A DNA stretch of 64,000 nt from positions 2,843 to 66,842 of the forward strand of contig JAGPCK010000009.1 of the NCBI GenBank assembly GCA_018058135.1, read 5' to 3'. The stretch's first letter is position 1, and every line of letters begins with the position of its first letter. Shown piece by piece: positions 5,640 to 34,855 of the stretch. The notes beneath the pieces are model-generated. The model saw nothing but the letters and a program-made list of their open reading frames with translations, was not told the origin of the DNA and did not search any database. Source of the stretch: Bacteroidia bacterium. GTDB taxonomy: Bacteria > Bacteroidota > Bacteroidia > UKL13-3. The position numbers were made by a program, and so were the translations under genes.

Positions 5640-6806
5640 ATGAGAAATTCTGATTATTTCTATAGTATATCAAGGAGTATTCTCGGGCCTTTGCAATTAT
5701 TTGTGCTTTCTCTGCTGGTTATACATTTTACTTCACTTTCCAATTGGGGCGCTTTTATCAGTATCTACCTGGTTTGGTCAGTTTGTGTATTACTTATCAA
5801 TTCCGGTACAAAAGAATTTCTCGTAAAATCAATCAGTTTAAATCCCTCATCCATTTGGCTTTTTGCATCAAACAATACCAGCATCAGGTTTATTTTCAGT
5901 ATACTTTCCGCACTGGTAGTCTTATTTATTCCACTGGGCAGCACCCCGGAAAAAGTGATGATGATGTCAGTAATTGTGCTCAGGGTATTCACTTCTACTT
6001 TTGAAGGACTAATTGTATATCAAAAAGTATTTAAGCAGTCTTTTTTTGCAGAGCTTTTATCCTTGCTGTTGATTTGTATTTTAACAGCCATTGGCAAATA
6101 CTATGGCTTTTTGCAACCCGTGTATATTCTCGCTTATATTGTTATGGGTGACATTTTTAAAATGGTTATCTATGAACATAATTTAAAACTCTTTAAAAAT
6201 TATTCTGTCAACTCATTTTCTGTTTTACAGAGCATAAAAGAATTGCTTCCGTTTTTAGGAGCCGGTATTCTTGGACTTGTTATGAACAAAGCCGACTTAT
6301 ATATATTCGGACTATTTGTAACCGATAGAGAACTTATTGCTCAATACCATATTTTAAACACGTTTAGTAACCTGCTTTTGATTACGGTAAGTGCGGCACT
6401 TTCAGTAAGAAATAAAGTGATCTTCAGGGTATCATTAAATAAACTCAAAACCATTCAACGGGTCTATCTGAAATATTCTTTGGGCTTAATTCTATCAGGG
6501 GGGATTTTCTTTTATCTGTTATCGCCTTTTTTGTTTCAGTATAAGATTACACTCGTTCAACTTTTGCTCATTATGCTTACTGTTTTACTGTTCAGTAGTT
6601 ATGCACTTTATATTTATGTTCTGCTCAGGGTAGATAAGATGAAACAGGTTAACTCTATGGTATTAGTAAGTGGAGTTACAAACGTTGTTTTGAATATATT
6701 GCTAATACCCTACTATCACATTGAAGGGGCCTTAATGGCAGTAACAATTTCAAATACGGTGATGCTTTTTTTAACCTATCGTAAAGTTAGAGCGTATATT
6801 TCATAA
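5640..6806 (+). CDS. polysaccharide flippase-like membrane protein (Wzx/MOP superfamily)
   Basis: About 12 hydrophobic helices across 388 aa. Located in the polysaccharide locus. Confidence 0.55.
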   Translation: MRNSDYFYSISRSILGPLQLFVLSLLVIHFTSLSNWGAFISIYLVWSVCVLLINSGTKEFLVKSISLNPSSIWLFASNNTSIRFIFSILSALVVLFIPLGSTPEKVMMMSVIVLRVFTSTFEGLIVYQKVFKQSFFAELLSLLLICILTAIGKYYGFLQPVYILAYIVMGDIFKMVIYEHNLKLFKNYSVNSFSVLQSIKELLPFLGAGILGLVMNKADLYIFGLFVTDRELIAQYHILNTFSNLLLITVSAALSVRNKVIFRVSLNKLKTIQRVYLKYSLGLILSGGIFFYLLSPFLFQYKITLVQLLLIMLTVLLFSSYALYIYVLLRVDKMKQVNSMVLVSGVTNVVLNILLIPYYHIEGALMAVTISNTVMLFLTYRKVRAYIS

Positions 6807-10552: not shown

Positions 10553-11341
10553 ATGGGGTTTAACCTGCTCGACATTTTTGCAAAAGCCGGAGTTGACTAT
10601 CTGCACCCCGGAGGCAAAAAAAGCACCGCTTACCTTATCCAAAAAATAAAACCTGTTGATGGCATGAACGTGCTGGAAATAGGCTGCGGCACCGGTGCCA
10701 CATTGGCTCAACTTTCACAGCATACAGGCGTGCAATTATTCGGGGTTGATGTATCAGCAGAAATGTTAAAAACCGCAGAACAACGAATGGAGTATTGCGG
10801 CATTACTAAGGTAAGCCTGAAATGGATACAGCCGGGCGGGAAGCTGCCCTTTGAAGATAATTTTTTTGATGCGGTATATGCTGAATCAGTATTGGGTATA
10901 ATTGAGCCACCTGCTTTAAGTGTGTTACTGGCAGAAATTAAAAGAGTACTAAAACCGGCAGGTACATTTTTTTCGGTTGATGCTGTTTGGCAGTCAAACA
11001 CTCCTGTAGAAAAGATAAGAGAGATTAACCACCGCTGCAAAAAAGATTTCGGGATAATACAAAGCAATGAAAACCCCGGGGATGAAAATGAGTGGAAAGC
11101 CTTTTTTAGCCAAACGGGTTTTATCCATATAGCATCGCTTGAAATAAAGGAGATGAAAACGGATAACGAACACGTTCAATCTCTTTCTGATACGTTTACC
11201 AAGTATAAAAAGCGCACTGCCTTTCTCAACCCGGCCTTGGTAGCGGCTTATATAAGTTCTCTCGTACGGATAAAGTGTTTTCACCGGAATGACGGTAAAG
11301 ATTTGAAAAACTATTTCTTTCAAATGGAGAAAAGCGGGTAA
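10553..11341 (+). CDS. class I SAM-dependent methyltransferase
   Basis: Motif I VLEIGCGTGA, followed by the acidic-loop LFGVDVS. Confidence 0.85.
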   Translation: MGFNLLDIFAKAGVDYLHPGGKKSTAYLIQKIKPVDGMNVLEIGCGTGATLAQLSQHTGVQLFGVDVSAEMLKTAEQRMEYCGITKVSLKWIQPGGKLPFEDNFFDAVYAESVLGIIEPPALSVLLAEIKRVLKPAGTFFSVDAVWQSNTPVEKIREINHRCKKDFGIIQSNENPGDENEWKAFFSQTGFIHIASLEIKEMKTDNEHVQSLSDTFTKYKKRTAFLNPALVAAYISSLVRIKCFHRNDGKDLKNYFFQMEKSG

Positions 11342-11356
11342 TACACCTTGTTTTTA

Positions 11357-11595
11357 GCTCAGCGAAGCTAATCTCCCAAAACACAACGTCATTGCCTGCC
11401 TGCTGTGCGTATGCCAGTGCTCGGCAGGTAGGCGATCCCGATGGCTATCGGGAGAAGCAGTCCCCAAATGTGAGCACCATCCTTCCAATCAGGAGATCGC
11501 CACGTCATGAGTACATGACTCGCGATGGCGGTATATTTTTAATTCCATCCTCTAAATCCAACGTCATTGCGAGCTCAGCGAAGCTAATCTCCCAA
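11357..11595. repeat. short direct repeats (B-A ... A-B arrangement) bracketing a GC-richer, stem-rich segment of about 165 nt
   Basis: B = GCTCAGCGAAGCTAATCTCCCAA at 11357-11379 and 11573-11595. A = AACGTCATTGC at 11385-11395 and 11560-11570. The interior holds several perfect stems (TCCCGAT/ATCGGGA, GTCATG/CATGAC, GGCGATC/GATCGCC). Confidence 0.85.
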
Positions 11596-11799
11596 TAGGA
11601 GCACAATTTAAACTTGCACAATTACCAAAAACTTACTAATTTGCCTTTGAAAACCATTTACCTATGCAACCTAACCTGTACTTTTTCCCTATTACTTTCA
11701 GGCGCCTCGAAGGCCCCCCGCTTTTAAACAAATTACACTCCGGTTTACATTTTTTTAAAATGCAGCAGTATGGCACATCTTTACCCCAAAAACGGGTGG

Positions 11800-11824
11800 A
11801 TATGTGCCATAATGTGGCACATAT
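11800..11824. promoter_or_regulatory. perfect 10-bp inverted repeat (operator-like) upstream of the PNP-domain gene
   Basis: ATATGTGCCA-TAATG-TGGCACATAT is centred about 46 nt upstream of ATG 11858. A third TGGCACAT half-site lies at 11771-11778. Confidence 0.5.
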
Positions 11825-11857
11825 ATACTAGTTGGGCGTAACTTAAAACAGATCAGC

Positions 11858-13093
11858 ATGATTGAGATGTCACAAGAAAAGATTGAGTACTTTAAGCATA
11901 GCATAAGTGTGCTTCTTGTAACTGCTACTGATACAGAAGCAGCAGAATCAATCAATAATTTGAAACCGCTTCCAAATGAATCTGCAATCATTCAAATGTT
12001 CAGTGGAAGTCAAACTTATTATATAGGTACGCTAGGAATCTATGGAGTTGTTCTTGTGCAATCGGAAATGGGTTCTATTGGCCGAAATTCATCATTGCTG
12101 ACAACTTTACGAGCTATTGAAATATGGGAACCTAAGGCAATCATAATGGTTGGAGTTGCATTTGGTATTGACTCAAAAAAGCAACAAATAGGTGACGTTA
12201 TTGTTTCTAGTCACATAATTCCATATGAGAATTCAAGAATTGGCAAAGAGATTGTTTTTAGATCGGAACTTCCCCCTTCAAGCACAATTTTATTAAATAG
12301 AATTCGACAGATTAGAGATTGGAAGTTTCCAGTTAGTCATAACCAATTTGCAAAGCTGTATGTTGGACCAATACTGAGTGGAGAGAAATTAATTGATAAT
12401 ATTTCTTTTCGAAATGACTTAATCAGAGCGTTTCCTAATGCGATTGGTGGTGAAATGGAAAGTGTAGGTGTTTATGGGGCGGCTAACGAAAAGAAAATTG
12501 ACTGGTTAATAATAAAAAGTATTTGTGACTTTGCGGATGGTGAAAAAGGCAAATTCAAAAAGGAATTTCAATCTATTGCAATTAAGTCGGCAATAAGTTT
12601 TACCGAAAGGGTTTTGAATATTCGATCAGGGTTTGGTGAATTAGGCTTTAAACCTCTAAAAGAATCATCATCAACTGACCCTACTATAACATATAAAGAT
12701 AGGCTAAAAGACTTAATGGCATTGTTTGATGCCATCGCTACACAGCCAAAGGAGAAGGATGGAAATATATTTAAGGTTGCTGCTCGTCAAATAGTTCAGA
12801 CAGAAGTAGAGAGCAAATACGATTCTAATGTTTCAAGACTTCAGATGCTGATACCGAAAAATGTATTAGAATCCTTTGAAATGAGAATTGAGAGATGTTG
12901 GACAATGTATAATAAAGTCTTAGTCGCTGACAGGGAATATTTACCTGACGATATAGATGATTCTTCTTACGCACTACAAAAGTGCATATGCAGAGAACTT
13001 CAAAGACTTTTATTTGTTAATGGAGACATTCCTGACGGACTTATGCAACAATATTGGGATAAGTATAAATGTGAAACAAATAATCCAACGTAG
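11858..13093 (+). CDS. PNP/MTA-SAH-nucleosidase-fold (PNP_UDP_1-like) protein with an unassigned C-terminal domain of about 140 aa; candidate nucleotide-depleting immune effector
   Basis: SVLLVTATDTE, SEMGSIG, AIIMVGVAFG, GGEMESVGVYGAA (nt 12446-12484) and CDFADGEK follow the order of motifs in phosphorylase-family nucleosidases. Residues about 270-411 have no motif I recognise. Confidence 0.7.
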   Translation: MIEMSQEKIEYFKHSISVLLVTATDTEAAESINNLKPLPNESAIIQMFSGSQTYYIGTLGIYGVVLVQSEMGSIGRNSSLLTTLRAIEIWEPKAIIMVGVAFGIDSKKQQIGDVIVSSHIIPYENSRIGKEIVFRSELPPSSTILLNRIRQIRDWKFPVSHNQFAKLYVGPILSGEKLIDNISFRNDLIRAFPNAIGGEMESVGVYGAANEKKIDWLIIKSICDFADGEKGKFKKEFQSIAIKSAISFTERVLNIRSGFGELGFKPLKESSSTDPTITYKDRLKDLMALFDAIATQPKEKDGNIFKVAARQIVQTEVESKYDSNVSRLQMLIPKNVLESFEMRIERCWTMYNKVLVADREYLPDDIDDSSYALQKCICRELQRLLFVNGDIPDGLMQQYWDKYKCETNNPT

Positions 13094-13095
13094 CT

Positions 13096-13230
13096 GCGCC
13101 TAACAGCACATTTGCAATAGGCGGGGTTTCGTGCTCCGCAGACAGCTTTGTGGTAGCCGAAAGTTCAGTCCTCCGAATGAACATTTGTGCTGAAAATCCC
13201 GCCCATCGCAAATGTGCAAAACGTTATGCG
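13096..13230. repeat. attC-like / MITE-like inverted-repeat element between gene units
   Basis: The arm GCACATTTGCAATAGGCGGGG (13106-13126) pairs with CCCGCCCATCGCAAATGTGC (13198-13217). The outer GCCTAAC (13098-13104) pairs with GTTATGC (13223-13229). Confidence 0.85.
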
Positions 13231-13257
13231 TCAGCTTAAAGAACAACAATATTGACA

Positions 13258-14667
13258 ATGAAAATGAAAGTATTTATATCATATTCTGAAAGAGACAGAG
13301 AGTTTGCCTTGCTATTGAAAGAAAGACTTTCAAGCGAAAATAACATCAATATATTCTTTGATGAACACTCCTTAGAAATGGGTGGAAACATTGAACGAAT
13401 AATGATGAGAAAACTTGAGGAGTTTGATTACTATTTAATTGTAATGTCAAAATATTCTGTCAAATCTAAATATCTAATGATAGAGTTAGACAGAGTAATA
13501 TTTAGGGAAATTAAGAGTGAAAAGCAAACCATTATTCCAATTGCAATTGATGAATATGCATTGGACTTCCCTGTCATAAGAGAATTTTCTAGTAGGCAAT
13601 TAATTGATTTCTCTAAAAGTTTTGAAAACGGCTATAAAAACTTGATAAAACGCTTAAATCAAGACCAACAAAAAAAAATAGCCATTAAAGAATTCAACCC
13701 AGAAGAAACGAAGAAAATAAATGACAACTTTCTTAAGGAAATAAAAGAAGAGTTTAAAAAAGGTAGTTTATGTCTATTTTGTGGTGCTGGTGTTTCAATT
13801 AAGGCAGGAATACCGAATTGGAGTTTCCTTCTTAAAGGCTTGCTTCAAAATTTAGTGGACAAACAGCTTGGAGACTTTTCTATAGACCCTAAAAAACAAA
13901 GACAATTAGCAGAATTTTATTATGATGAGTTTGGTGTTTCGTCTTTAATTGTTGGTCAATATTTAAAAAATGGATTAGGAGAATCTTTTCTAGAAGATGT
14001 CAGAGATGCACTGTATCAAAATAACCCAACAGACAGTGATATCTTAAATACGATAGTCGAATTATGCCGTCCACAAAGAGAACGTAAGACTTTGAATTCA
14101 ATAATCACATTCAATTTTGACGATTTAATTGAAACCAACTTACAAAAAAACAGAATAAAGCATAGACCTATTCACAGTGAAGGACAAAGAGCCTTGAATT
14201 CTGAAATTCCAATATACCACCCTCATGGCTTCTTACCTAGAAAGCAAAAGCTTTCAGAGCAAAATGAAATCGTCTTTTCTGAAGACGCATATCACTCACA
14301 ATTTATTGAGCCGTTCAGTTGGAGCAATTTAGTCCAACTAAATCATTTAAATAATAATACTTGCTTACTTGTTGGAATTAGTTTGACTGATCCGAATTTA
14401 AGACGACTCCTTGATGTTTCGATGAGAAAGAACCCTGATAAACAATTAAGACACTACATATTTAAAAAACGTTACAGCACTGAGGAAATAAAGGAAAAAC
14501 TAGCTAAATCTGAATTGAGTGGTGATAAGAGTTTTTTTACCAACAACTTTATTTATATGACTGAACTTTTGGAGGAGCAAGACGCAAGAAAACTTGGACT
14601 AAACGTTATTTGGATAAAGGACTTTGAAGAAATAAATAATTTTCTAACACGGTTAAATGAAGAATAA
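13258..14667 (+). CDS. TIR domain - SIR2 (SIR2_2-type) domain fusion protein; candidate NAD+-consuming defence protein
   Basis: The N-terminus KVFISYSERDREFALLLKERL...VMSKYSVKSKYLMIELD is TIR_2-like. The C-terminal part has LFCGAGVSIKAGIPNW (GAG at 13783-13791), ITFNFDDL, IYHPHGF (His at 14224-14226) and LLVGISLTDPNLRRLL, the SIR2_2 motif order. ATG 13258 is preferred over TTG 13252. Confidence 0.8.
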   Translation: MKMKVFISYSERDREFALLLKERLSSENNINIFFDEHSLEMGGNIERIMMRKLEEFDYYLIVMSKYSVKSKYLMIELDRVIFREIKSEKQTIIPIAIDEYALDFPVIREFSSRQLIDFSKSFENGYKNLIKRLNQDQQKKIAIKEFNPEETKKINDNFLKEIKEEFKKGSLCLFCGAGVSIKAGIPNWSFLLKGLLQNLVDKQLGDFSIDPKKQRQLAEFYYDEFGVSSLIVGQYLKNGLGESFLEDVRDALYQNNPTDSDILNTIVELCRPQRERKTLNSIITFNFDDLIETNLQKNRIKHRPIHSEGQRALNSEIPIYHPHGFLPRKQKLSEQNEIVFSEDAYHSQFIEPFSWSNLVQLNHLNNNTCLLVGISLTDPNLRRLLDVSMRKNPDKQLRHYIFKKRYSTEEIKEKLAKSELSGDKSFFTNNFIYMTELLEEQDARKLGLNVIWIKDFEEINNFLTRLNEE

Positions 14668-14806
14668 AAGCCGAACGCATAACAGCACCTACAAGAAATT
14701 GGCGGTCCAGTGGTTACATAAAGCTTTGTGCTTCGTATCAAGTAAAGTGGTGGCAAACAGTTTAAGGCTTCGAAATCGCCAAACATTCTAGAATGATTTA
14801 ACTCCA

Positions 14807-15721
14807 ATGAAAAATCAAGATATAATTGACATCGTTGACATTAATCAAGAGTTTGATAAAATCAAGTCCCGTCTGCATTTGTTGTCTGACCGATTTCTTG
14901 CTGTGGCCATGGACTACAAACACTATGTGGATAGTTCATTTAAGGAGGACAGAATCTATGCACTTCGTGATAATGTTCAGTATAGGTTGTTCTCTGCAAA
15001 AATCCACTTAGAATTGTTGCTGCGACAACACATTTGGATCCAGGAAAGATTGGAGAAAGGATTTAATAATAATCCTAAAGTTGTAACAGACGATTACATT
15101 CCTATCAACCCCTACTTCGACATCTATCAAAAGGAAATTTCATCAATACTTGACAGTTTTGTTTATCACATTAGCTCAGTGTTTGACTATTTAAGCACTC
15201 TTACAAATTATATTGGCGGCTCAAATCGATACGACACCCTAATGTGGACACAACTCGCGAAATCAGTGAGGGACGGAAAGAACGCCTACAGTAAAAGACT
15301 GTTTGCCAGTACAATTGACAACATAGATCGGGACTTCGTTAGTAAGTTGTATGACCATCGAGCTTTTATAATTCACAGAAATGCCGATCCAAGTGGCTAT
15401 AGTGTAACTTTGTTTCTTGGACAAACTGAAAGGATTAAAGTCAATTTTCTTGCTGGCAAAAATCTTGTCAAGAATTTTAAAGAGTTAAAATCGCTAAGTA
15501 AGGAAAAGCACCCTACTGTGAAATACGTTGCCTTTTGGATGCTTAATAAATCAATTGACAAGGTGACTGATATTTTATTTGCACTTAAAAAGGAAATGGA
15601 ATTTGATCCCAAAGTAAAGACTCCATTTATGTACTATTTACATCCCGAGACAAAAAAGGCATTACCAGTTTCATCGATATACTGGCATGAAGATCTATAC
15701 TTAAAAGAGAATGGTGAATAG
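14807..15721 (+). CDS. hypothetical protein with an RX4H motif (possible HEPN-like RNase)
   Basis: 304 aa, helix-rich by composition. There is a single RAFIIH motif (Arg at 15359-15361, His at 15374-15376) in the context YDHRAFIIHRN. There is no other recognisable domain, so the call is tentative. Confidence 0.3.
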   Translation: MKNQDIIDIVDINQEFDKIKSRLHLLSDRFLAVAMDYKHYVDSSFKEDRIYALRDNVQYRLFSAKIHLELLLRQHIWIQERLEKGFNNNPKVVTDDYIPINPYFDIYQKEISSILDSFVYHISSVFDYLSTLTNYIGGSNRYDTLMWTQLAKSVRDGKNAYSKRLFASTIDNIDRDFVSKLYDHRAFIIHRNADPSGYSVTLFLGQTERIKVNFLAGKNLVKNFKELKSLSKEKHPTVKYVAFWMLNKSIDKVTDILFALKKEMEFDPKVKTPFMYYLHPETKKALPVSSIYWHEDLYLKENGE

Positions 15722-15731
15722 AAAACCCCTC

Positions 15732-15965
15732 CATCTAAGCGTAGGTTGCGCCTACGTTTACTCTTTTATGTAGCTTGCAGCTACAAACGCACACGGGTGG
15801 GTTAAATGGCATAAAATTATAGACTACCAAACTTTGTTTATAAGCCGTAACCCCCGCTCACCTCACACTGCAACCAAGTATTTTTCTACTTGCTTTTTCA
15901 GCTTTTTATCATCAGTTTTACATGGCAAATAGTGGATGATATTTTTCACACTCTGACATTGTGCG
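15732..15965 (+). repeat. about 235-bp direct repeat, copy A (its 3' third is an R1 intergenic element)
   Basis: Near-identical to 17102-17330 at a constant offset of 1370 bp over most of its length. It begins with the hairpins AAGCGTAGG-TTGCG-CCTACGTTT and TGTAGC-TTGCA-GCTACA. Confidence 0.9.
15737..15767 (+). terminator. terminator-like hairpin just after the stop of the 14807-15721 gene
   Basis: A 9-bp stem (AAGCGTAGG / CCTACGTTT, one mismatch) is followed by the T-rich ACTCTTTTA. The same structure, with a perfect stem, occurs at 17107-17137 in repeat copy B. Confidence 0.4.
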
Positions 15966-15986
15966 TCATATTAAAACAGAAAATAA

Positions 15987-17036
15987 ATGAAACTGATTAT
16001 TCTCTTAACGTTATCAATTTTATCAGCTTCTTGTAACTCACAAGGAAAGAGACTGAACACTAATAAAAAAAGTGATTCAGATAAAGTAGAAATTGAATCT
16101 CAAATTGGAGAATATGTTACAAGTGCATTTGAAGATTCGAAAGGTAATTTATGGTTTGGAACAAATGGAAATGGAATTGCAAGGTATGATGGTGAAAAAT
16201 TAAAGTATTTTACAACAAAGGATGGGTTACCATCTGATAGAGTTACTGCAATAAAAGAGGATTCAAATGGTATCTTTTGGTTAAATACGGGTGAGGGTTT
16301 AACCAAATATGATGGGAAGAATTTCACCAATTTTTTAGTAGGAACCAACTCCGGCAGCAATATGATTGCTAATTCACTTATTGATAGCAAGAACGTTTTT
16401 TGGGTTGGCACCTGGAATGGTGTCTATAAATTTGATGGACGAACGTTTCATCCATTTTCAGTTCCTTACCCAAAAGTAGATACCAAAATAAATGAAGATA
16501 CCAGGTATTGGATAATGGGTATCAGTGAAGATGCCGTGGGCAATATCTGGTTTCTAAGAGACGGCTATGGCGTTTGTAAGTATGATGGAAAGTCGTTTAC
16601 TCATTTTCTGAAAAAAGACGGGCTGCACTCAAATAATGTTACCCAAATAGAATTTGATAAAGATGGAAATGTTTGGATTGGAACGAGAGTGGCTGAAAGA
16701 GATGATCCTGACCCCAAAAAGCGATTTGGAAAGGGTGGAGTTAATAAAATGACAGGGAATGAGATTATTTCATTTCCGGAAATAGCAGGATTTAATGATG
16801 GTGATGTGTATCAAATCTACAAAGACAAATCTGATAATATATGGATAGGTACAGTAAAAAATGGTGTATATAGATATGATGGAAAAGGCTTTAAACACTA
16901 CGAAGTTCCAGTTTCAATTATGGGTATGCTGGAAGACCAAAAAGGAAATTTATGGTTATGTGGAGCAGGTGGATTATATAGAATTAATCAGAATGGCGAA
17001 GTTATAAACGTAACTACAAAAGGGCCTTGGAAATAA
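15987..17036 (+). CDS. lipoprotein with two-component-regulator-propeller (Reg_prop-like) beta-propeller repeats
   Basis: Signal plus Cys (LSILSASC). Recurrent modules read G..W.GT..G(I/V).(R/K)(Y/F)DG..F..F (IARYDG, LTKYDG, VYKFDG, VCKYDG, VYRYDG). Confidence 0.7.
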   Translation: MKLIILLTLSILSASCNSQGKRLNTNKKSDSDKVEIESQIGEYVTSAFEDSKGNLWFGTNGNGIARYDGEKLKYFTTKDGLPSDRVTAIKEDSNGIFWLNTGEGLTKYDGKNFTNFLVGTNSGSNMIANSLIDSKNVFWVGTWNGVYKFDGRTFHPFSVPYPKVDTKINEDTRYWIMGISEDAVGNIWFLRDGYGVCKYDGKSFTHFLKKDGLHSNNVTQIEFDKDGNVWIGTRVAERDDPDPKKRFGKGGVNKMTGNEIISFPEIAGFNDGDVYQIYKDKSDNIWIGTVKNGVYRYDGKGFKHYEVPVSIMGMLEDQKGNLWLCGAGGLYRINQNGEVINVTTKGPWK

Positions 17037-17101
17037 AAAATACGAACGCACAACACTGGTTTGGCAAAAAAGCGGGTTCCGTGTTTATATGAAGTTTTGC
17101 T

Positions 17102-17330
17102 CATCTAAGCGTAGGTTGCGCCTACGCTTACTCTTTTATGTAGCTTGCAGCTACAAACACACATGGCTGGGTTAAATTGCATAAAATTATAGACTACCAA
17201 ACTTTGATTATAAGCTGTAACTCACGCTAACTTAACTCATAAACTAAGGTTTTCTACTTGCTTTTACAGCTTTTTATCACCAGTTTTACATGGCAAAGTG
17301 TGGAGGAGTTTTTCACACTTTGCAGTTACT
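17102..17330 (+). repeat. about 235-bp direct repeat, copy B (its 3' third is an R1 element)
   Basis: See copy A. The two copies flank the 15987-17036 gene. Confidence 0.9.
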
Positions 17331-17369
17331 GGCAATTATTAAAAAAAGACTTTAATCTTAACTAAAAAT

Positions 17370-17837
17370 ATGGAAACAGATGACGGAAGCCCGGCAAGCA
17401 AAATATGGCCATTGGTAAAGTTTACTTTTGTAGTAGACCTGGGTGCAGGTATGAAAAGTGTGGCATTTCTAGAAGTTTCCGGATTGGATGCTGAAAACTC
17501 AACTATTGAATACCGTAAAAGTAATAGCCCGCTCTTCTCCACAGAAAAAATGCCGGGAATAGCTAAGTACCGTAATGTAACTCTGAAAAAAGGTGTATTT
17601 GTAAATGACAATGCTTTTTGGAATTGGTACAATCAAATAATGATGAATACGATTAAAAGGCAAACGATTTTAATAAAACTACTAGATGAAACCGGTGGCG
17701 TAGCCATGCAATGGCAATTAAATAATGCATGGCCAACAAAAATAACAAGCACCGATTTAAAATCTGATGGCAATGAAATAGCAGTTGATACACTTGAGAT
17801 TGCTCACGAACAACTTATCATATCGAATGGCTTGTAA
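17370..17837 (+). CDS. contractile-tail tube protein (T4 gp19 / Afp1-Pvc1-like family), orphan copy
   Basis: WPLVKFTFVVD...FLEVSGLDAENSTIEYRKSNSPLFSTEKMPGIAKYRNVTLKKGVF..DNAFWNWYN...ILIKLLDE...WQLNNAWPTKITSTDLKSDGNEIAVDTLEIAHEQL follows the conserved pattern of eCIS/phage tube proteins nearly block for block. Confidence 0.85.
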   Translation: METDDGSPASKIWPLVKFTFVVDLGAGMKSVAFLEVSGLDAENSTIEYRKSNSPLFSTEKMPGIAKYRNVTLKKGVFVNDNAFWNWYNQIMMNTIKRQTILIKLLDETGGVAMQWQLNNAWPTKITSTDLKSDGNEIAVDTLEIAHEQLIISNGL

Positions 17838-17875
17838 ATAGGGGCACACTTTGTCGTTACCAGGCATCCAAAAAA

Positions 17876-18502
17876 ATGACAACAAACTACTTAATTTCTG
17901 GACTCATAATTGGTTTTTCGGTAGCAGCTCCGGTTGGGCCAATTGGTGTGCTAACAATAAGACGTACATTAACGGAGGGGCGTATCTCAGGTTTTGTTAC
18001 CGGAATGGGAGCGGCAATGGCAGACACAGTTTACGGCATAATCGCAGGCTTCGGACTGACAGCAATTTCCTCATTTCTTTTGACACAAGAATTTTGGTTG
18101 AAATTAATCGGAGGATTGTTTTTACTTTTTTTAGGCATCAAATTTTTTGTAACTAAACCGGCATCAAAAGCTGCGAATGTTCAGAGTAATGGGCTTTTCA
18201 ATAATTTTATTTCAACTTTTTTCTTAACTGTTACTAACCCTACAACCATATTATCCTTCTTAGCCATATTTGCCGGACTTGGCTTAGGTACAACAAAAAC
18301 AGACTATTCATCATCCATCGCACTTGTACTTGGTGTATTTATTGGTTCTGCTTTATGGTGGTTAATATTAAGCTCTATAGTTAGTTTTTTTCAATCTAAA
18401 ATTACACCCGACAGATTGATTTGGATAAACAGACTTTCAGGTTTAATAATAATTTCATTTGGCCTCTTTGCTTTATATTCATGCATGACAATAAAACATT
18501 GA
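17876..18502 (+). CDS. LysE/RhtB-family amino-acid exporter
   Basis: Six hydrophobic helices. The N-terminal AAPVGPIGVLTIRRTL block is typical of the LysE family. Confidence 0.8.
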   Translation: MTTNYLISGLIIGFSVAAPVGPIGVLTIRRTLTEGRISGFVTGMGAAMADTVYGIIAGFGLTAISSFLLTQEFWLKLIGGLFLLFLGIKFFVTKPASKAANVQSNGLFNNFISTFFLTVTNPTTILSFLAIFAGLGLGTTKTDYSSSIALVLGVFIGSALWWLILSSIVSFFQSKITPDRLIWINRLSGLIIISFGLFALYSCMTIKH

Positions 18503-18592: not shown

Positions 18593-18673
18593 TTCTTTAC
18601 ACTTGCTTTTGTTGCTTTTTATCACCAGTTTTACATTGCAAAGTGTGGGTGAGTTTTTCACACGCTGACGTTA
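18593..18673 (+). repeat. R1 intergenic element (copy c)
   Basis: TTCTTTACACTTGCTTTTGTTGCTTTTTATCACCAGTTTTACATTGCAAAGTGTGGGTGAGTTTTTCACACGCTGACGTTA. Confidence 0.9.
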
Positions 18674-20863: not shown

Positions 20864-21046
20864 AAACTACCACCAGCATGGGTTTGGCTTCGTTGATTTT
20901 CATTTGGCAAATGTAGGGCTTTGATGCAAGGCTGAATATTTGTACTTTCTATTAACTTTAGTTTTAAATTTGAGCCTAAGTACATTTTAACACCCACCTT
21001 CGACAAGCACAACCACGTTATGGCTTATTTTAAAAGACACGACCTA

Positions 21047-34838: not shown

Positions 34839-34855
34839 CGTGCAAATTAATTTTG

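Follow-up and report, generated by a model that had tools for sequence, protein, structure and literature searches.

Probable integron-type cassettes with candidate single-protein defence genes in an eroded array of a Bacteroidia genome

Compact defence genes are known to be stored in integron cassettes (Darracq et al., 10.1101/2024.07.02.601686; Kieffer et al., 10.1101/2024.07.02.601719), and integrons have been reported in Bacteroidota (PMC8618304). The PNP domains of the Cap17 clade in cyclic oligonucleotide-based anti-phage signalling systems (CBASS) and of Detocs are ATP nucleosidases (10.1101/2023.01.24.525353), and a repertoire of PNP-fusion effectors has been described for EAD/STAND conflict systems (Kaur et al., PMC8195603). 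bSEFIR is a single-gene system (Millman et al., 10.1101/2022.05.11.491447) that depletes nicotinamide adenine dinucleotide (NAD+; 10.1101/2024.02.11.579819); its set was restricted to proteins whose SEFIR match beat their TIR match (10.1101/2022.05.11.491447). Here we analysed a locus of three adjacent genes, for a PNP-fold protein (gene 1), a TIR-SIR2 fusion (gene 2) and a helical protein with an RX4H motif (gene 3), in a 64-kb stretch of contig JAGPCK010000009.1, referred to as the window. A sequence-only reading had proposed them as a candidate anti-phage locus, either one system or three independent single-gene cassettes. The evidence favours independent cassettes; that reading had noticed the repeats between the genes and had missed their attC form. 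We consider it likely that genes 1 and 2 and the propeller gene that follows (gene 4) are integron-type cassettes, each mobile by itself, that gene 3 is probably another, judging from its position, and that they stand in a short, decaying array without an integrase in the window, which resembles a cluster of attC sites lacking integron integrases (CALIN).

Contigs of a metagenome-assembled Bacteroidia genome (GCA_017996105.1 and GCA_018061185.1) match the window. All coordinates are those of the window unless a homolog locus is named; such loci in other genomes are labelled L007, L010, L011, L014, L016–L019, L024, L099 and L102. The three consecutive plus-strand open reading frames (ORFs) lie where they had been placed:

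11858–13093, + strand: gene 1, 411 aa; PNP/methylthioadenosine-S-adenosylhomocysteine (MTA/SAH) nucleosidase-fold domain at residues 19–253 and helical four-cysteine module at residues ~316–407 (Pfam, PADLOC, conservation).
13258–14667, + strand: gene 2, 469 aa; TIR-SIR2 fusion, candidate single-protein NADase (Pfam, PADLOC, PDB).
14807–15721, + strand: gene 3, 304 aa; all-helical, RX4H motif and a second polar cluster, in the slot between two verified cassette boundaries.

In other assemblies the start of gene 2 is called at ATG 13258 or 13264.

The cassette reading is carried by the attC anatomy of the intergenic elements, by a cassette-specific complementarity of cassette ends and by the separate occurrence of each gene elsewhere. 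The 164-bp gap between genes 1 and 2 holds an imperfect palindrome of 132 nt that begins five bases past the gene 1 stop:

13098–13229, + strand: intact attC-type site of the gene 1 cassette, from R'' GCCTAAC (13098–13104) to R' GTTATGC (13223–13229) (fold, alignment, covariance model).

This site agrees with the attC pattern (R'' RYYYAAC, R' GTTRRRY, 57–141 nt), with R' fitting at six of seven positions because one purine position is T. From core to core the element measures 132–133 nt in the window copy and in at least six copies in L016–L019. AAC and GTT are invariant in all seven aligned copies, and compensatory changes occur in 16 of the 36 predicted pairs. A covariance model was built from seven aligned copies, 13098–13229 among them. 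It scored the window site, as a copy from its own training set, at 105 bits (E = 1e-25) and found seven same-strand copies within ~10 kb of L016. Every gap between short genes in the L016 array contains the element or is partly filled by it, if a degenerate palindrome at 6520–6720 is counted.

The L016 array (GCA_963853265.1, contig CAWKWH010000037.1, 5663–15571) has at least seven attC copies. Its contents are a TIR-SIR2 gene 94% identical to gene 2, a HEPN_MAE_28990/RiboL-PSP gene, a DUF4253 gene, an EF-Tu-domain-3 protein and an inserted rve transposase. PADLOC gave no matches for the remaining cassette proteins of L016 and L017. A public gene call in L016 (9492–10244) begins inside an attC and is probably too long.

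Tandem same-strand arrays of the element are found in L016–L019. In the window, the array has degraded, and besides the intact site only two left-arm relics and an inner relic are left:

14675–14806, + strand: decayed attC of the gene 2 cassette; R'' and left arm ACGCATAAC-AGCACCTACAAGAAATTGGCGG kept, right arm lost, no fold.
17046–17090, + strand: attC of the propeller cassette (gene 4), left arm only, interrupted by the second copy of a repeat, D1/D2.
20903–21007, + strand: attC relic downstream of an S41 peptidase gene (covariance model, 32.5 bits, E = 1e-6).

After the stop codons of gene 2 (at 14676) and gene 4 (at 17047), only left arms are present. A structured repeat had been proposed for each gap between the three genes. 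This holds for the 164-bp gap, which folds with -58.7 kcal/mol (z = -4.8 against shuffles), and does not hold for the 139-bp gap after gene 2 (z = +1.0), which keeps the left arm only (CGCATAACAGCAC at 14676) and in which the covariance model did not detect the decayed site at 14675–14806. The relic at 20903–21007 points to an older, longer array, and the block from ~11.8 to 21 kb as a whole suggests an old cassette array that has eroded.

Where the attC of gene 3 is expected, a different element is found:

15732–15945, + strand: repeat D1/D2.

D1/D2 is ~215 nt long. Its second copy (17102–17313, 88% identical) interrupts the attC of gene 4, partial copies lie near 18601, 19798 and 24865, and 17845–17860 also belongs among its sites. 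The right end reads CACACTYTGNN-[A/G]TT and is followed by cassette-specific bases, and the last ~65 nt recur 23–111 nt upstream of several plus-strand genes. D1/D2 may be a second attC type or a small attC-targeting element.

The ends of individual cassettes are complementary to each other. Read as reverse complement, the bases after GTT on the 5' side (TTnnnnnn) are identical to those that precede AAC in the 3' site of the same gene, and this signature differs in sequence between most cassettes. In the window, it marks the following boundaries:

13224–13231, + strand: start of the gene 2 cassette, TTATGCGT, whose exact reverse complement, ACGCATAA, stands before the final C of the downstream AAC.
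15959–15966, + strand: start of the gene 4 cassette, TTGTGCGT, whose exact reverse complement, ACGCACAA, makes up bases 1–8 of ACGCACAAC at 17046–17054.

The paired ends, each given as 5' core and 3' R'', are:

Window gene 2: GTTATGCGT and ACGCATAAC, 9/9 (8/8 without the G).
L016 TIR-SIR2 gene: GTTGTGCGT and ACGCACAAC, 9/9.
L016 EFTU_D3 gene: GTTACCTGC and GCAGGTAAC, 9/9.
L016 gene of 253 aa: GTTAGTGGC and GCCACTAAC, 9/9.
L017 cassette: GTTAGCAGC and GCTGCTAAC, 9/9.
L099 gene 1 homolog: GTTAGGCGC and GCGCCTAAC, 9/9.
Window gene 4: TTGTGCGT and ACGCACAA, 8/8.

Two of the 9/9 matches from L016 and L017, including that of the L016 TIR-SIR2 cassette, were read by eye from aligned sequences. Among 24 plus-strand genes tested in the window, 8/8 complementarity was seen at genes 2 and 4 only. 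The core of window gene 4 is identical to that of the L016 TIR-SIR2 cassette, and in L099 an exact GTTAGGCGC lies 68 nt upstream of the ATG of the gene 1 homolog. Circular cassettes excised and inserted at G|TT leave exactly complementary ends, and each one would have been acquired on its own, by recombination at the G|TT of an attC site. Gene 3 is bounded on its left by the end of the gene 2 cassette and on its right by the gene 4 cassette start. At L099 3380–3434, the gene 1 homolog (71% identical) keeps the first ~55 nt of its attC at 96% identity with an abrupt end, as in a truncated attC.

We then compared the neighbourhoods of homologs, as the sequence-only reading had proposed, and found that homologs of the three genes never lie side by side in independent genomes. 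In 76 metagenome loci that carry relatives of the gene 1 PNP domain, of which three are full-length, no gene 2 or gene 3 homolog was found alongside. TIR-SIR2 genes at 94% and 69% identity have wholly different neighbours, and no gene 3 homolog (40–88% identity) adjoins a PNP or TIR-SIR2 gene. A scan of the genome collection with a narrow gene 3 alignment gave four loci. DNA similarity to every foreign locus ends at the gene or just past it. The homologs have defence-type neighbours of several kinds, namely type I and MmeI restriction, AbiH, SIR2-STAND and HEPN genes and a Mu-like prophage. Gene 3 homologs were found inside a type I restriction operon (Adhaeribacter, L007), beside an MmeI-type enzyme (L014), beside a helicase-nuclease (L010), with a HEPN_Cthe2314 gene nearby (L011) and in further, different settings. 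The gene 1 homolog in L099 adjoins a NOV_C gene, a SIR2-STAND protein and a type I restriction system, and that in L102 adjoins two AbiH genes and the Mu-like prophage. Because the homologs never co-occur, the locus is best described as holding independent single-gene candidates.

Several findings weigh against the cassette reading. Searches by tblastn with IntI1 and XerC queries detected no tyrosine recombinase, either across the 64 kb of the window or in L016–L019. The window also has no attI site or Pc promoter and is not a complete integron, and the genes upstream of gene 1 are for polysaccharide synthesis, a radical-SAM protein and a methyltransferase. Only one attC in the window is intact and the others are relics, and the extrahelical bases of canonical attC sites are not obvious in this element family. 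In PADLOC, neither the gene 1 nor the gene 3 architecture has a named system. Gene 3 is placed among the cassettes by its position only, and no attC of this family flanks gene 3 homologs. For gene 1, the candidate 5' end is:

11831–11839, + strand: candidate 5' core of the gene 1 cassette, GTTGGGCGT, 7/9 against the reverse complement of its own R'' GCGCCTAAC, a match that is not significant alone and has a rival site with one mismatch at 11698.

No attC-like hairpin ending at this core was found by eye. Since the attC cluster has no integrase in the window, we class the locus as a remnant of the CALIN type or of the type with single attC sites lacking integron integrases (SALIN).

An alternative is that the elements are palindromes of the repetitive extragenic palindromic (REP) or miniature inverted-repeat transposable element (MITE) kind that act as terminators, in a conventional defence island assembled in some other way. 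The lack of a nearby integrase and of evident extrahelical bases would fit this, as would the other repeat families in the region (D1/D2 and repeats at 11356 and 11572). Such repeats do not explain the gene-specific exact complementarity between the bases on the 5' GTT side and those on the 3' AAC side, and the elements have a single orientation and a fixed length of 133 nt and occur once per gene. We consider this alternative unlikely and retain the reading of integron-type cassettes.

For gene 1, both the PNP fold and the unassigned C-terminal part that had been proposed were recovered: Pfam PNP_UDP_1 matched residues 19–253 (2.3e-19), and ~150 aa without a family match follow. PADLOC matches were to PDC-M60C (3.5e-18) and to the CBASS PN-superfamily effector (4.6e-14). 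Housekeeping MtnN models scored the PNP domain about as well as the defence models did (4e-18, 66 bits against a cut-off of 169), and the related solved structures are MTA/SAH nucleosidases only. Across 18 full-length relatives (42–82% identity), E27, GGEME (197–201) and CDFAD (223–227) are invariant in the PNP domain, and C347, C376, C378, C405, R343, R379, E380, R383, N388, P392 and W400 are kept in the C-terminal part. The nearest PNP domains outside the family (40–50% identity) are fused to EAD1/7/8/11, GAAD, nSTAND2/6, TIR_2, TPR or receiver (REC) domains. The structure model of gene 1 is good over the PNP part and only moderate over the C-terminal module.

The four-cysteine module (12803–13078, residues ~316–407, ~90 aa) has no Pfam family. 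A profile of the C-terminal 150 residues of gene 1 matched 174 representative proteins among 1.84 billion; the module was C-terminal in every case, with a common part of ~90 residues. Most of these proteins have 130–150 aa and an N-terminal hydrophobic helix, and in others the module sits behind a Ser/Thr kinase, pentapeptide repeats, ORF6N, SH3 or a membrane region. Among the 150 module matches listed, the longest had at most 505 aa. The module is undescribed and has no family or fold assignment, and it may be a new, widespread sensor or adaptor domain. EAD-style pairing was not supported for gene 1: when the window and the fetched homolog loci were searched with a hidden Markov model of the module, a second copy turned up in none of them. 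In L024 (9274–15416), a 46% identical gene 1 homolog is followed after 38 nt by a 1616-aa ORF without a Pfam match and then by a 430-aa PNP-domain protein.

Gene 2 is the TIR-SIR2 fusion that had been read from its motifs, with Pfam matches to TIR_2 (5.9e-20, residues 7–132) and SIR2_2 (3.7e-20, residues 283–419). PADLOC matched it to ThsA, Dsr1, LmuA and bSEFIR; in the PDB it matched ThsA, KomC and AbTIR-type TIR domains, best of all the SIR2 part of ThsA. The expected catalytic residues are in place: E76 of the TIR domain is at least 90% conserved, and GAGxS, N286, D288, H321 and H323 of the SIR2 domain are invariant. The family is large (2247 matches), and nearly all of the best 120 matches are full-length proteins of 440–500 aa. 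The few relatives with source names come from Bacteroidota, Desulfotalea, Chlorobium and Capsulimonadaceae. Literature searches for TIR-SIR2 or SIR2-TIR fusions returned no papers.

The RX4H motif reported for gene 3 is present as R185-x4-H190 and is invariant in all 31 aligned family members. A second invariant polar cluster is formed by D116, S117, H121, S124, D127 and Y128. The family is small (91 relatives) and mainly from Bacteroidota, to which all relatives with names belong. The structure model is confident (predicted local distance difference test score 90.4) and all-helical with two small hairpins, and it places the motif at the C-terminal end of a long helix. The HEPN assignment, by contrast, did not hold up in profile and fold searches. 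Gene 3 as query had no match in Pfam, PADLOC, NCBIfam or PHROG, no HEPN-family Pfam match was found among the 31 members at E <= 1, and a gene 3 profile matched no PDB sequence. Foldseek searches of PDB and BFVD with the model gave nothing at E <= 0.001, with no HEPN protein among the 50 top-ranked PDB matches shown. A HEPN identity for gene 3 is not supported, as hhalign comparisons with two HEPN neighbours gave probabilities below 1% in addition to these negative searches. With no fold or profile support beyond RX4H, the call stays a motif-level guess; the family has no family or fold assignment, and it may represent a new enzyme fold with an RX4H site. A conserved upstream partner for gene 3 was also rejected, since the upstream genes differ at every locus.

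Genes 1–3 are under strong purifying selection relative to their homologs (0.04–0.22 non-synonymous differences per site against 0.74–0.89 synonymous, the latter at or near saturation). Between the TIR-SIR2 genes of the window (13264–14667) and L016 (8001–9404), the proteins are 94% identical and the DNA only 82%; the synonymous difference (pS) is 0.75 (saturated) and the non-synonymous (pN) 0.039, an unusually strong constraint.

From the homology of the proteins and the neighbours of their homologs, a defence role for genes 1–3 is a reasonable proposal, in which each cassette would encode a self-contained abortive-infection candidate. Gene 1 is predicted to break the N-glycosidic bond of ATP or dATP, like PNP effectors of the Cap17 clade, and its four-cysteine module would serve for regulation or docking. 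In gene 2, the SIR2 active site, the TIR active site or both would deplete NAD+, and the TIR domain would probably drive trigger-dependent oligomerisation in place of the SLOG-mediated signalling of Thoeris. In both proteins, the non-catalytic or second domain would keep the enzyme off until a trigger is met. Gene 2 may be a kind of "Thoeris in one chain": its TIR domain would sense infection and switch on the SIR2 NADase with no diffusible signal. Gene 3 would be a helical enzyme or toxin, RNase activity through RX4H being one possibility. There is a possible, if somewhat doubtful, case that at least one of the three cassette proteins is a new kind of self-contained single-protein immune effector.

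The cassettes could also be real and their proteins not anti-phage, acting instead as addiction modules that stabilise the array, as effectors in inter-bacterial conflict or as enzymes of NAD or nucleoside metabolism. Chromosomal integron arrays are rich in toxin-type cassettes, and the similar scores of the gene 1 PNP domain against housekeeping MtnN and defence models agree with such roles. The closest PNP relatives have immune-type architectures, the homologs adjoin restriction and Abi genes, and Thoeris, DSR, Kongming (KomC) and bSEFIR-like systems use TIR and SIR2 domains of this type as effectors, all of which makes this alternative rather improbable. Very improbable, finally, is a single three-gene system in which a shared trigger activates a co-encoded ATP nucleosidase, NADase and RNase: the genes are adjacent on one strand with short gaps and the trio recurs in three assemblies, albeit as 100% identical copies from the same organism, but it co-occurs in no independent genome, the 94% identical TIR-SIR2 homolog is a cassette on its own, an intact recombination site with a strong hairpin separates genes 1 and 2, and the cassette borders lie between the genes.

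The surroundings of the cassettes contain further repeats. The perfect palindrome that had been noted 5' of gene 1 is real, with 10-bp arms:

11800–11824, no strand: perfect palindrome ATATGTGCCA-TAATG-TGGCACATAT, read directly, with extended imperfect arms as well.

It ends 6 nt upstream of the candidate 5' core and thus lies outside the gene 1 cassette; at its position, L099 has only ATATATACnnGTT in common. The 516-bp gap upstream of gene 1 has identical 24-nt direct repeats, AGCTCAGCGAAGCTAATCTCCCAA, at 11356–11379 and 11572–11595 with AACGTCATTGC beside them, and these are a different, REP-like repeat family. The accessory block had been described as AT-richer, and GC content does fall from ~0.42 to 0.33–0.36 past 12 kb, but the window is just as AT-rich in its first 9 kb. 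An Rfam scan of 11000–18000 gave no match, and in a scan for sigma-70 promoters and terminators the counts were not above those of shuffles. Island borders linked to tRNA genes were rejected, the sole tRNA lying at 34855. A T4 gp19-like tail-tube gene (17370–17837; Pfam Phage_T4_gp19; PHROG tail tube, 5e-12) stands alone without adjoining phage-tail genes. It is bounded by 16-nt direct repeats, CACACTTTGNNGTTAC.

Integron-type stacking explains how three suicide chemistries without a sensor came to be neighbours with no joint function, and the independence of genes 1–3 makes each a clean, compact candidate for single-gene testing. With this locus, the recent view that integron arrays store streamlined defence genes gains an example from Bacteroidota, and the attC family of the locus is a handle for mining further cassettes in related genomes. 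It also draws attention to a widespread TIR-SIR2 family with no match in the literature searches, to the four-cysteine module and to a gene 3 family without detectable fold relatives. Defence genes on integron cassettes have already been described; the three proteins themselves are candidate variants.

The locus shares with the defence cassettes of Darracq et al. and Kieffer et al. one compact gene per cassette, a same-strand array, attC sites between genes, mutually complementary cassette ends and the occurrence of each gene alone elsewhere. It differs in its host, a Saprospiraceae-like Bacteroidia metagenome genome rather than Vibrio or a plasmid, and in its decayed state, with no integrase, attI or Pc in 64 kb; by text searches, genes 1–3 match no system tested in those studies. 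Gene 1 has the PNP fold and conserved catalytic motifs of the PNPase effectors Cap17 (CBASS), DtcC (Detocs) and EAD-STAND, but it has a four-cysteine module in place of SAVED, TPALS, REC, STAND or EAD domains. The module is fused to varied proteins, and no partner with a second module lies nearby. Gene 3 has the invariant R-x4-H motif and all-helical fold expected of HEPN abortive-infection RNases, and its homologs occur within restriction operons and beside other HEPN genes, but it matches no HEPN profile or structure despite a confident model and has an extra invariant polar cluster.

The mismatch of gene 2 to canonical Thoeris, already noted from the sequence, is confirmed. Type I Thoeris uses ThsA (SIR2-SLOG) and a separate TIR protein, ThsB, whereas gene 2 combines TIR and SIR2_2 in one chain of 469 aa. 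NAD+ depletion would be expected of both, and the top PADLOC and PDB matches of gene 2 are to the SIR2 part of ThsA, but the ThsA profile is matched only there (positions 104–276 of 478). Pfam and PADLOC found no SLOG domain in gene 2, which is therefore not Thoeris and has no evident receptor for a TIR-made signal. bSEFIR is closer in layout. Like gene 2, it is one protein with an N-terminal TIR-superfamily domain, and its PADLOC profile (positions 35–364 of 412, E = 2e-11) aligned to residues 3–418 of gene 2; this alignment over both halves suggests that the two have the same two-part layout. The N-terminus of gene 2 is a plain TIR domain (TIR_2, 5.9e-20) with no SEFIR match in Pfam, which places it outside the published bSEFIR set.

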